Assembly: GCA_951406725.2 (NCBI GenBank)
Contig: OX597815.1
Span: forward strand, 135,098,001 to 135,162,000
Direction of reading: 5' to 3'
From: Octopus vulgaris
Lineage: Eukaryota
Length of the DNA stretch: 64,000 nucleotides
The notes under the pieces: generated by a model
What the model was told of the DNA's origin: nothing
Databases searched by the model: none
Seen by the model: only the letters and a program-made list of their open reading frames with translations
Part shown: positions 6,840 through 62,779 of the stretch, piece after piece
How the letters are laid out: the number at the start of each line of letters is the position of its first letter
Position numbering within the stretch: the first letter of the stretch is position 1
Translations under genes and position numbers: made by a program

Positions 6840-7255
6840 ATGGCAAGCTGGCAGAGTTGTTAACACACTGGACAAAATGCATGCCTCGTGGCATTTCATC
6901 TGTCTTTATGTTCTCAATTCAAATTTGCCTTTCATCCTTTTGGGGTTGATAAAATAAGTACCTATTTCTTTACTACCCACAAGGGGCTAAACATAGAGAG
7001 GACAAACAAGGACAGACAAATGGATTAAGTCGATTATATCGACCCCAGTGCGTAACTGGTACTTATTTAATCGACTCCAAAAGGATGAAAGGCAAAGTTG
7101 ACCTCGGCGGAATTTGAACTCAGAATGTAGCGGCACACGAAATACTGCTAAGCATTTTGCCTGGCGCGCTAACGTTTCTGCCAGATAAAATAAGTACCAG
7201 TTGAGCAATGGGGTTGATATATTTGAATTGCTGGCCTTGTGCCAAAATTTTAAAG
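6840..7255. mobile_element. Young SINE S3 (minus, 6963-7183) nested in an older plus-strand copy of the same family
   Basis: 15-bp TSD gataaaataagtacc at 6948-6962 and 7184-7198. Near-identical to copies at 49587 and 63660. Confidence 0.88.
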
Positions 7256-8119: not shown

Positions 8120-8232
8120 TATACACACAATACACACATTGTAATTACATTTTGCCATAGTAGGACCAATAACCAGTTGTTGGAACTTCATATACATATA
8201 ATGTCTATCAGTGATTCATTCATATATATATC

Positions 8233-8381
8233 CATCATCATCATCATCATTTAACATCCGCTTTCCATGCTAGAATGGGATGGACGGTTCAACTGGGGTC
8301 TAGAAACACTGCCAGATCAGACTAGGCCTGGTGCAGCCTCCTGGCTTCCCAGACCCCAGTTGAACCGTCCAACCCATGCTA
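8233..8381. mobile_element. SINE/LINE-tail family S2 copy with internal inversion
   Basis: (cat)n tail followed by arms 8271-8301 and 8351-8381 in inverted orientation. Confidence 0.8.
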
Positions 8382-11177: not shown

Positions 11178-11334
11178 ATTTATATGTGCATATAAGTGAG
11201 TGCCTAAGCACAAGTGTGCATTGTCACATTTATGACCTTACTACAAGACAATCTATAACAAACTCCATCAGCAGCCAATCTATAGACATCTAGTCTTTTT
11301 AGTTTCTAAATTTCTGCTAAATTACCTCATTATT

Positions 11335-11919
11335 GTAAAGTATAATAGCCATCTCGATATGGCTAACCACAGTGTTACTGTAGCTTTTTAGCCCCAGGAG
11401 ATCATCGTCTCCAGCTGGCTTTAGGCACACTATCTGTGCCCTTATGGTATTTACAAAGGGAGGCCATCCCTTTCTCGTAAGCCTAAGTGATACGCACCGG
11501 ACTGACAGTTTTGAGGTTGTTGCCTCATCAACAGGTGGTAATCACCAGATCACGATGAAAGGGAAAGCCTGTATGCAAATATATAAGAGTTTTTCTAGTG
11601 ACTTCTGCCACTGATTTCGAAAAACTGTCTGCAAGCATTATTAAATCTCAGAACGAGATGTAAACAGTAATCGCTTGACAATGTAAAGTATAATAGCCAT
11701 CTCAATATGGCTAACTACAAAGGGGGGTGTTACTGTAGCTTTTTAGCCCCAGCAAATACCATAAGGGCACAGATAGTGTGCCTAAAGCCAGCTGGAGACG
11801 ATGATCTCCTGGGGCTAAAAGCTACAGTAACACTGTGGTTAGCCATATCGAGATGGCTATTATACTCTACATTCTTGAGCGATTACTGTTTACATCTCGT
11901 TCTGAGATTTAATAATGCC
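11335..11919 (-). mobile_element. Retrozyme/Penelope-pLTR-like insertion, 348-nt unit, tandem plus inverted (element A)
   Basis: 12-bp TSD tacctcattatt at 11323-11334 and 11920-11931. Unit restarts at 11683; inverted segment 11754-11918. Confidence 0.85.
11487..11545 (-). ncRNA. Type I hammerhead-like motif (variant core)
   Basis: gtgattaccac-CTGTTGA-t-GAGG caacaa CCTC-aAAA-CT gtc AG-TC|cggtgcgtatcac: stems II and III, a GUC site and an extended, slightly out-of-register stem I. Confidence 0.6.
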
Positions 11920-12557
11920 TACCTCATTATTATCTATACAAAAATCAAAAAATAGAAGTTAAAAAAATAGAAGTTAAAAAAATAAAATATTAAAATTCTA
12001 AAATATTATATATATCATATATATATATATAGCTGGGATTATCGTTTGCATATGTGTATTAGTGAATCTCTGTTTCTTAGCTCTTATAGTTTTCTGAGTT
12101 GATCTAGCTTTGTGTCCAAGTGTCTGATTTTCATATCTGTAACCACATGTGTGAGTCTATAAATGTGAATGTGTATATTTGTGTAAGTATGCATAGTTAA
12201 ATGTGTGTTTACTATGTGGGTGAGTGAATATATATTTATATGTACATCCATATATCTATATATGAGTCAACAAACTAATGTGTATGTGTGTGTGTATCAT
12301 CATCATCATCATCATCATTTAATGTCCATTTCCATGCGGACATGGGTTAGATGGTTTAACTAGAACTGGTAAGCCAGAAAGCTGCACCAGGTTCCAGTTG
12401 GAATTTGGCTTGGTTTCTACAACTGGACGCCCTTCCTAATGCCAACCACTCCAAGAGTGTATAGTGTGTGTGTATATATATCTTTGCACCTATATGTGGG
12501 TCTCTATTACATGTTTGTGGATATAAGGACATGCATGTATATGAGTATGTGTGTGTG

Positions 12558-13127: not shown

Positions 13128-14454
13128 TATAAATATATATGCATGTATATATATATGTATGAATATATACATGAAGGAAGAAAATAGAAAAAAGCTTAGA
13201 GAAAAGAAAAACAAAAGAGTGGCATATGCTATAGTAAAAGCTCACGAGGATATGTTTTGTAGAAAAATATAGTTAAGAGTTCTCTAAAAGGGTTTTATGT
13301 ACCTTTTAGAATATGATTAGCTGGCAACAATTATGTAAAGCTTGTACATGTATGTCTTACGCATGCACACACACACACACATACGCGCAAACAGACATAT
13401 GGGCTTCAAAATAAGTGTACGCATCTTACTCTCATTAACTGGACTGTTTGTCTTCTTGCATTTGAATGTGTATTTATGTATGTATTATGTAAAAATGATG
13501 ATGATATATGAAAAAATTATCTGCTGCTAATATTTTACATGCGCATGATATATAAGTTACAACCACATGTATATTACATTATTATATTTACACACACACA
13601 CACACACAATGTACTGTATGTATTCTGTCTGTACAAATATACACAATTACACACAGACACATACAGACACACAACATACTCACAATTGAATAGACAAGTA
13701 CATCTATTTTTAATACATACACATTTTGCTCACTCAAAACACGCATACACACACATAAGTCATACCCTAAGAGATAGTCGTAACCATAAGTTAGTGAGAT
13801 TCTACCCCATCCAGTTTGTAAATGTTACATCCATTAACAGATCTAAAGGTGTCCATTAGCTACAGACATACATCAATTTTCACATGAATCTTAATCTGCA
13901 AATACAGCTGTTAATCCCTCATCCAGCATAGAAGATAAAATAGATCTAAACAACCAAATACAGCTTGTGAGATGAGGTAACATCAACAGAAATCTTAACA
14001 ACAACAATATGATATAAGCAATATATGAAAATATATATATTAATACTTCTTGATTTTTTTTCTCTCTCTTTATTCTTGTTGTTTTTAAGGTGAATTAGCA
14101 GAAGTGGTAGAACAATGGATAAAATGCCTGGTGGTATTTAGCATTCTTTCTTTATGATTTGAGTTCATGTTTCAACAGCTCCTGATTTTACATTTTACCT
14201 TTCTGTGATCAACAAAATAAATACCTTTTCCCCTAAATATGTGGTCCTGTGTTTTTGTCAACTTTGCCTTTCATCCTTATAGTGTCAATAAACTAAGTAC
14301 TAGTAGATATTGAAATCCACCAGTGCTTGTCAAAATCTATACTCATGCATCTAAGTTAGAAATTATTATCACTTTAATTACTAGCAGAAAAACTGACCCC
14401 TGGATATATATATATATATATTTTATTCTAATACAAGATTTGAGCGAGGTTGTT

Positions 14455-14730
14455 CCCAGTGCCACTGGACTGGTTCCTGTGCAGGTGGCACATAAAAAAC
14501 ACCATTTGAGCGTGGTTGTTGCCAGTACCGCCTGACTGGCCCTCATGCTGGTGGCACATAAAAGCACCCATTACACTCTTGGAGTGGTTGGCGTTAGGAA
14601 GGGCATCCAGCTGTAGAAACTCTGCTAGATCAGATTGGAGCCTGGTGCAGCCATCTGGTTCGCCAGTCCTCAGTCAAATTGTCCAACACATGCTAGCATG
14701 GAAAGTGGACTTTAAACGATGATGATGATG
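14455..14730 (+). mobile_element. SINE/LINE-tail family S2
   Basis: ggtggcacataaaa..cacc repeats, ggaagggcatccagctgtagaaac and a (gat)n tail. Confidence 0.85.
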
Positions 14731-18008: not shown

Positions 18009-18231
18009 TTATCATTTATCTTTCACTTGTTTCAGTCATTAGACTGTGGCTATGTTGGGGCACTGCCTTGAAGAATTTTTAGCCAAATGAATTGACCCTT
18101 GTACTTTTTTTTAAGCCTGGTACTTATTCAATTGTTCTCTTTTGCTGAACTGCTAAGTTATAGGGACATAAACACACAAGCACCAGTTGTCAAGCAGTGG
18201 TGGTGGGTGACAAACACAGACAAAAAGACAA

Positions 18232-18262
<31 letters not shown>

Positions 18263-18428
18263 CACACACAATGGGCTTCTTTCAGCTTCAGTCAACCAAA
18301 TCCACTCACAAGGTTTTGGTTGGCCCGAGGCTATAGTAAAAGACACTTGCCTAAGGTACCATGCAATGGGACTGAATCCAGAACCAAGTGGTTGGGAAGC
18401 AAGCTTTTTACTACACAGCCATGCCTGC
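18009..18428 (-). mobile_element. SINE family S1
   Basis: Full-length reverse copy of 61685-62100. Confidence 0.9.
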
Positions 18429-61684: not shown

Positions 61685-62100
61685 GGCGCAGGAGTGGCTG
61701 TGTGGTAAGTAGCCTGTCTACCAACCACATGGTTCCGGGTTCAGTCCCACTGTGTGGCACCTTGGGCAAGTGTCTTCTACTATAGCCTCGGGCCGACCAA
61801 TGCCTTGTGAGTGGATTTGGTAGACGGAAACTGAAAGAAGCCCGTCGTATATATGTATATATATATATATGTATGCGTGTGTGTGTTTGTGTGTCTGTGT
61901 TTGTCCCCATAGCATTGCTTGACAACAGATGCTGGTGTGTTTGTGTCCCCGTCACTTAGCGGTTCGGCAAAAGAGACCGATAGAATAAGTACTGGGCTTA
62001 CAATAGAATAAGTTCCGGGGTCGAGTTGCTCGATTAAAGGCGGTGCTCCAGCATGGCCGCAGTCAAATGACTGAAACAAGTAAAAGAGTAAAAGAGTAAA
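61685..62100 (+). mobile_element. Young full-length tRNA-derived SINE S1
   Basis: A-box-like tggctgtgtgg, B-box-like ggttcagtccc, CORE-like ccttgggcaagt and a (taaaagag)n tail. Confidence 0.92.
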
Positions 62101-62255
62101 GAGAGTCACTAAAGTGAACAAGGGCACTAATCAGCACACAAAGTCATTGGTTATCTAGCTCTGTGACCAAAGGGGGCTTGTCTTCCTTGACAGCTCATTA
62201 AGGTAGTGCTTTTTGTGGCTATGGAGTTGTTTTGACTTTTATTTCTAGCAATGCT

Positions 62256-62300
<45 letters not shown>

Positions 62301-62779
62301 ACTATCCTAGCGTGTCTTGCTTTGAAGAATATCATTACATAGATCTATCATTATATATATATATATATGTATGTATGTATGTATGTATATATGTATACAT
62401 ACATACTGCAATCAGATGCAAAAGGAAGATTGTGTTCGTTAGATAACTTTATTCAATGTTAAGATAATTTCATATGGTTAGAAGAACTATTTTTTTTACT
62501 ATACATTAGTTTGTATGCATAATTAATCAATTAATCAATTACAAATTTAGCCTTCAACTGTTCTCATCAGACGCTAATAACTTTCGGAAGCAGTGAGCAA
62601 TTACATGTGTACACACACACAAACGCACATACAATGGGCTTCTTTCAGTTTCTGCCTACCAAATGCACTTACAAAACTTTGATTGCCTGAAGTACCATAC
62701 AGTGGGATTGAACTTGAAACTACGTGGTTAAGAAGAAAACTTCTTACCACACACTTGTATGTATGTGTGTGTGTGTATG

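Follow-up and report, generated by a model that had tools for sequence, protein, structure and literature searches.

The 585 nt that lie between two identical 12-bp target-site duplications (TSDs) in the window, i.e., in the whole 64-kb stretch of DNA analysed here, are probably a dispersed insertion of a non-autonomous, hammerhead-bearing element (an animal non-LTR retrozyme, that is, a non-autonomous Penelope-like element, PLE), for which a PLE enzyme, a reverse transcriptase with a GIY-YIG endonuclease, would have acted in trans. This kind of element is already known, and the insertion adds a member of the retrozyme/PLE type. It carries the integration signature of PLEs (an inverted copy, a tail and a TSD) on a unit of retrozyme size, and the one event appears to record two different monomers. 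The locus itself, a single dead copy in gene-poor DNA, probably does nothing. For the dispersal of retrozymes, circular RNA templates have been proposed, and the link to PLEs rests mainly on shared ribozymes, co-occurrence and trees; the family described here numbers thousands of copies and is present in two or more related organisms, and with it template form, start sites and target choice could be tested from assemblies only.

Layout of the insertion and its paralogues

The insertion and its flanking duplications are composed of the following parts:

11323-11334, no strand: left TSD, 12 bp, AT-rich, with ATT at its end
11335-11682, minus strand (RNA sense): full unit, 348 nt, non-coding, 42.5% GC
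11683-11752, minus strand: restart, 70 nt, a 5′-truncated tandem copy of unit positions 1-63, pseudo-LTR-like
11753, no strand: joint base of the head-to-head inversion joint, fitting neither continuation, with no microhomology
11754-11870, plus strand: inverted 5′-truncated copy, unit positions 118-1, identical to the full unit at 116 of 118 positions
11871-11918, plus strand: PLE-type tail, 48 nt, unit positions 348-301, with one more base (11919) before the right TSD
11920-11931, no strand: right TSD, a 12-mer identical to the left TSD

The duplicated 12-mer occurs only twice within the 64-kb window and can be extended on neither side. The chance of such a match at a fixed place is 2e-7, and an identical 12-mer is found 597 nt further on at 3 of 63,380 window positions, the TSD itself counted. 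The coordinates and the count of two copies confirm the perfect TSD around a 585-nt insert that had been proposed in an earlier, sequence-only reading, and its layout of a 348-nt unit, a 70-nt restart and an inverted segment at 11754-11918 also stands. Read in RNA sense, the order is an inverted 5′-truncated copy with a 48-nt extension, a 5′-truncated tandem copy and a full unit, with the TSD outside. No ORF of at least 90 aa was found inside the unit and the element holds no ORF, on which ground its identification as an autonomous PLE was rejected.

The restart is identical to unit positions 1-63 in 61 of 70 alignment columns, the differences being a 7-nt G-rich insert and two substitutions. 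The inverted arm, 165 nt long as a whole (11754-11918), had been described as the unit end (11635-11682) joined to the unit start (11335-11452). The part from the unit start holds (116 of 118 positions), but the part from the unit end holds only for 11635-11675, where tail and unit (positions 341-301) are identical at 41 of 41 positions, and 3 of the remaining 7 nt differ. The divergence of about 0.85% per arm (95% upper limit about 3%) agrees with the earlier description of the insertion as young, whereas the unit is in the minority state at no fewer than 13 of its 348 positions among the substitutions listed (40 of 50), in addition to indels, and its age is thus a relative matter.

Twenty-four sequencing runs were listed, with four coded organisms, and 20 of them contain part of the stretch. 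Contigs were compared at 80% likeness from four of the 24 runs, namely X1 and X2 (organism A), X3 (organism B) and X10 (organism A, presumed RNA), and the runs of organisms C and D lie outside this comparison. The contigs that match the stretch number 3,765 in X1, 3,510 in X2, 3,013 in X3 and 291 in X10. Summed contig depth is 31-47 on the left flank and thousands of times higher on the element, a ratio that is not a copy number; the unit family is clearly very abundant, and it is present in at least two organisms. Neither blastn nor nhmmer detected a second copy of the unit within the window, and metagenome and viral contigs contained no match in exact-pattern scans. X10 contains family contigs, which give no strand, ends or circles, and leaves the left flank without cover; its A>G and T>C tallies (4 and 7) are similar to those of the DNA runs (3-4 and 9-10), and are compatible with editing or with none.

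It is scarcely credible that the structure arose in assembly, from a chimeric or fold-back read inside a repeat. Such an origin would agree with the fact that no contig spans the whole stretch or exactly matches the inner inversion joint among the 32 of 10,705 pieces listed. However, the TSD is perfect, the two arms differ from each other, and one contig of an independent run, X2, matches the right junction (27 nt of the arm, the TSD and flank) with 0 differences over 114 nt. Because of this identity, the right end is not an assembly artefact. The filled right junction is thus present in X2; no empty-site joint appears among the 15 of 25 joints listed, and its absence from contigs proves nothing.

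Near-identical inverted sequence at both ends is also what would be expected of a MITE or foldback DNA transposon with long terminal inverted repeats, in which the ribozyme-like motif would be incidental. The inverted repeat is, however, offset by 48 nt at one end and does not have flush termini, and the insertion contains an internal tandem restart. In the paralogue contigs, fixed TIR-type termini are absent, and inversion joints are found at several places (e.g., 11418/11834, 11420/11502, 11471/11685 and 11499 to 11776). Varied joints are predicted by the truncation and joining of copies and not by a MITE, and their sequences appear largely to refute the MITE reading, against which the conservation of ribozyme core and stems with compensatory changes, described below, also counts. 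We regard it as highly improbable, and retain the insertion of a retroposed, hammerhead-bearing element.

Two side observations were made on the same contigs. Loose ends at 11681, in 41, 28, 48 and 6 contigs of the four runs, join the unit start to one different upstream sequence, which resembles unit positions 245-260 and is possibly that of a shorter-monomer subfamily or of the autonomous partner. Recurrent joints from 11727-11745 to 11898-11899 suggest that in many members the inverted repeat is longer and pairs the tail region with unit positions 40-56, as a stem that would enclose the first start site of reverse transcription (see below) and is shorter in the element copy.

The hammerhead motif and the fold of the unit

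The unit contains the following features of a hammerhead ribozyme, with residues numbered as is usual for hammerheads:

11461-11570, minus strand: long stem (extended helix I), with the hammerhead at its tip
11499-11532, minus strand: degenerate minimal type I hammerhead, read from the copy's own letters and paralogue states
11531 (U3), minus strand: start of the hammerhead core, in which A8-A9 are missing
11526-11513, minus strand: stem II, 4 bp, with a CAACAA loop
11512, minus strand: G12A lesion, with G12 in paralogues
11505, minus strand: one extra base in the palindromic helix III, absent from paralogues
11502-11500, minus strand: GUC triplet, with the predicted cut between 11500 and 11499

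On the minus strand, the element copy reads UUGAU, GAGG-CAACAA-CCUC, AAAA, C-UGUCA-G and UC. The paralogue reading is that of a minimal type I hammerhead, with a UUGAYAA core, a 4-bp stem II, GAAA, a palindromic helix III and GUC. At 11512, the base that gives GAAA (G12) holds a depth share of 0.80, 1.00 and 0.95 in X1, X2 and X3 (6, 4 and 7 contigs; X10 is without cover), and the base at 11505 is omitted in 3, 1 and 2 contigs of the same runs. Among the loose ends, 16 contigs of X3 and 4 of X10 have a helix III that is a perfect palindrome, with UGCA as its loop. Two extra core bases at 11526/11527 are found in three contigs, one each from X1, X2 and X3, which then have UUGAUAA or UUGACAA in front of stem II. 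In the family core, a U3-A8 pair appears to replace C3-G8, a reading that comes from these three contigs, takes position 3 as U because the three A>G changes of X1 all lie elsewhere (i.e., from the absence of a listed change), and is subject to an 80% cut-off that favours contigs near the element copy. In addition, two X10 contigs (loose end, 11495) contain a sister motif that has G8 in its core and a 4-bp stem II with two compensatory changes, closed by the same CAACAA loop II, together with a different palindromic helix III and a different cleavage triplet. Both U3-A8 and G8 cores thus seem to occur in the family, judging from these contigs, which would make it useful for the study of ribozyme covariation.

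The sequence-only reading had noticed a hammerhead-like motif capping the unit. The hammerhead is upheld, but the motif lies on the minus strand and its parse, with a core of CUGUUGA...AAAA, was wrong; this parse has been dropped because paralogue indels shift the core two bases further. The paralogue contigs place the core at 11531-11525 of the minus strand, as one of U3-A8 type from which two bases have been lost. Alignment of the paralogues, which had been put forward as a check, shows core and stems to be conserved and co-varying. An HDV-like fold of the plus strand was also considered, and was rejected on the misfit of P2 and J4/2 (by eye), the better fold of the minus strand and the co-variation of paralogues as a hammerhead.

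Loss of A8-A9 abolishes hammerhead cleavage, and so does G12A. Because the element copy has lost A8-A9, carries G12A and has an extra loop base, its hammerhead is, by its sequence, almost certainly inactive, and this motif, which is not intact, is the single one in the insertion. Rfam gave 0 matches at gathering score in the 64-kb window, as is expected of a broken copy, and the five chance-level matches near the element include no ribozyme. Motif scans of the window yielded no other convincing hammerhead.

The unit as a whole folds far better than shuffled sequences, with z of -7.1 for the minus strand and -4.9 for the plus strand, and 0 of 100 shuffles were as good in either case. Within 11455-11580, the minus strand forms 44 pairs (5 of them G.U) vs 39 (2 of them G.U) for the plus strand. 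The rest of the unit, outside about 11461-11570, is a row of small hairpins; the rod that had been proposed for the unit is therefore limited to the long stem. The arms are predicted to pair as a 118-bp helix (plus) or a 129-bp helix (minus) if the element is transcribed, in keeping with the more than 110 bp of dsRNA that had been foreseen.

Short palindromic helix III is described as a mark of hammerheads that act as dimers, and both this helix and the U3-A8 variant are described as traits of PLEs and retrozymes, the U3-A8 variant being reported from PLEs of Schistosoma (PMC4209133). Altogether, and taken jointly with the rest of the preferred explanation, it is likely that the family ribozyme is a minimal type I hammerhead of dimer type and that the element copy is a dead passenger.

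Template and priming of the insertion

The insertion is best accounted for by the following series of events. A tandem source locus would give rise to a minus-strand RNA of at least about 470 nt, which would hold parts of two diverged monomers, uncut between them. Both target strands would be nicked 12 nt apart in AT-rich DNA; the TSD is observed, and the enzyme presumed. Both 3′ ends may then prime cDNA synthesis at two internal sites of the downstream monomer that lie 48 nt apart, as the ends of the copies suggest, with 11335 as the putative start site 1 of reverse transcription and the outer tail end as the putative start site 2. The long cDNA of 418 nt (unit plus restart) would start in the second monomer, cross the ribozyme site and stop in the first, while the short cDNA of 165 nt (tail plus inverted copy) would start 48 nt further downstream in the second monomer. 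The two truncated cDNAs would finally be joined head to head with one extra base. ATT adjoins both presumed nicks, which in AT-rich DNA is weak evidence.

A TSD of 12 bp, 5′ truncation and 5′ inversion are marks of L1-type insertion, and all three are present here, as they would be if a SINE-like RNA had been moved by an ordinary LINE and its 5′ inversion had been made by L1-type twin priming. In twin priming, the inverted piece starts upstream of the first start. Here, however, it begins 48 nt downstream of that start and overlaps with the end that was primed; there is no poly(A) or simple-repeat 3′ tail at 11335, and a PLE-type hammerhead is present. We consider movement by a LINE very unlikely.

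The sequence-only reading had argued that the template contained the head-to-tail junction, as expected of a circular or multimeric RNA. That the insertion is retroposed and derived from a multimer is upheld, but the argument for circularity from an arm that spans the junction is not. This arm is no evidence of a circle because the junction is internal to the monomer that the ribozyme would define; distances downstream of the predicted hammerhead cut are 165 nt for the junction, and 165 and 213 nt for the outer ends of the insertion. On our analysis, the "unit junction" reads as the internal start site 1, one of two. Some paralogue sequence that begins upstream of the tail reads across it. In X1-X3, depth increases about 4-fold at the boundary of unit position 1, a step that is confounded by the indels of the copy and by a second upstream variant (24 of 611 loose ends listed).

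The composition of the copies suggests that the template was one uncleaved RNA holding parts of two diverged monomers. The argument is that the restart keeps a G-run of the family, at 11720-11726, which is deleted in both the full unit and the arm. The family carries this run, as depth at 11373 is 258-633 vs bin means of 33,000-178,000 around it, and the loose ends there are G-rich. Full unit and arm also share minority states at five substitutions (unit positions 98, 304, 307, 316 and 337), and the restart has a private change at 11716. A template of at least about 470 nt that stayed uncut at the hammerhead fits a dead ribozyme. Differences between the monomers (6 in 111) vs those between arm and unit (2 in 118) are not significant alone (Fisher p 0.16). 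Were the three ribozyme lesions to have arisen within 45 nt after insertion, p would be 0.007 at the point rate and 0.16 at the upper limit of the rate, and a date of the lesions before the insertion is accordingly not firm. Gene conversion between the arms could produce the same sharing of states, and a circle of two monomers or a switch of template is a possible alternative route.

Rolling reverse transcription around a single circular monomer RNA would produce the more-than-unit length and the head-to-tail junction as well. Retrozymes of 350-390 nt from mussel and other organisms are reported to form abundant circles (PMC7229834), and circular templates have been proposed for PLE tandems (PMC4209133). 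However, one circle predicts that restart and unit are identical, and since the two differ in family-informative states (a 7-nt indel and two substitutions, with the G-run in the restart only), a single circular monomer is disfavoured. It would also need a working ribozyme, and that of the unit has three lesions. With later gene conversion between the inverted arms as the source of the differences between restart and unit, this reading is improbable, and the uncleaved two-monomer RNA is the template that we prefer.

Over its last 7 nt (8 if the next flank base is included), the TSD is identical to tail positions 302-308 (or 309), and at the right end 11910-11917 can pair with 11925-11932 as an 8-bp hairpin. 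The chance of the match is 2e-4 at a fixed place and about 1% if ends, strands and offsets are allowed to vary, for a single insertion (n=1) and a match noticed post hoc. It may be an AT-rich coincidence, a shared endonuclease preference or a trace of docking between primer and template. The last of these, in which the tail would aid target choice as a docking site, the nicked target end pairing, ahead of synthesis, with the second start site on the RNA, is doubtful. If true across the family, docking would amount to a partly RNA-guided choice of target by PLEs on an uncleaved multimeric template, contrary to the non-homologous initiation seen in vitro and to the circular-template model of retrozymes.

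Relation to known elements and to the rest of the window

Non-LTR retrozymes are described as non-coding head-to-tail units of 150-450 nt with a GC content below 45-50% and a high degree of self-pairing, which have a type I hammerhead with a short palindromic helix III, TSDs of more than 4 bp and a high copy number (Cervera and de la Pena 2020, PMC7229834; Li et al. 2026, 10.64898/2026.07.22.740005). Mussel units measure 350-390 nt (PMC7229834), and according to the 2026 preprint, non-LTR retrozymes derive from PLE pseudo-LTRs (10.64898/2026.07.22.740005). The present element resembles them in its 348-nt non-coding unit with 42.5% GC, its tandem restart, self-pairing, long TSD and high copy number and, at the family level, in the type I hammerhead within the unit, as read from paralogue states with few contigs over the core. 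Unlike them, the locus is a dispersed 1.2-mer with one, broken, ribozyme, and is not an "active" element by the two-ribozyme rule of Li et al. The inverted arm and tail are a further difference, the word "inverted" being absent from the main text of PMC7229834. The family core also appears to be U3-A8.

In reported PLE insertions, a partial tandem forms a pseudo-LTR, a truncated copy lies next to it in inverted orientation, and one end has a tail of 30-40 bp (bioRxiv 2021.04.23.441226; PMC3846280; PMC8969392); for the rotifer insertions given as examples, TSDs measure 8-10 bp (Arkhipova et al. 2013, PMC3846280). The protein of a lizard PLE, assayed in vitro, cuts both strands and extends them, with a preference for ATT; it initiates at two internal positions of the RNA, one on either side of the tail, and prefers uncleaved RNA (Frangieh et al. 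2024, PMC11167929). In its tandem and inverted 5′-truncated copies and its tail at one end, the present insertion is like those of endonuclease-positive PLEs as described (PMC3846280; Craig et al. 2021; PMC11167929), which it also resembles in TSD size, AT-rich target and the position of a hammerhead upstream of two start sites. It differs from PLE insertions in having no ORF, a whole repeating unit of 348 nt and a tail of 48 nt vs 30-40.

The hammerheads of the Cercyon PLE of Schistosoma mansoni, for which pairs of inverted motifs 100-700 bp apart have been described, share with those of the present family U3-A8 for C3-G8, G10.1-C11.1 and a palindromic helix III (Cervera and de la Pena 2014, PMC4209133). 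They differ in that stem II has 4 bp here vs 7-8 bp, that there is no extra base between A9 and G10.1, and that helix III is retained here. Within the preferred explanation as a whole, the element is likely to be a dead member of a retrozyme-type family and to behave as a passenger of PLEs.

A search of largely open-access literature, outside repeat libraries such as Repbase or Dfam, on hammerheads and retrozymes in octopus or cephalopods yielded no description of such a family, which may already be catalogued. A repeat annotation of Octopus vulgaris lists recently active Penelope families and, in the available portion of its text, leaves the word ribozyme unused (PMC13282606).

The window in which the insertion lies is AT-rich (28-41% GC per 2 kb) and full of microsatellites and dispersed repeats, which are octopus-like in appearance. 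In 65 of its 77 ORFs of at least 90 aa (12 microsatellite frames were left out), Pfam gave no match above the curated cut-off and none to a reverse transcriptase or GIY-YIG domain, as an autonomous PLE partner would have, and no host exon was identified. A weak DDE_3 match (Tc1/mariner-type transposase) at 1872-2174, with E 4e-4, falls under the curated cut-off. Several dispersed repeat families, whose many copies are 70-90% identical, fill the window (12297-12461, 14445-14730, 18012-18428 and many more). Other inverted repeats, at 6919-7101 and 61805-62674 (44 nt at 91% and 46 nt at 87%), are MITE-like or paired repeat copies. Another inverted insertion is found at 8223-8381: this is a copy of an abundant SINE-like repeat, of which one half matches the other copies in one orientation and the second half in the reverse orientation, with the switch at 8301.
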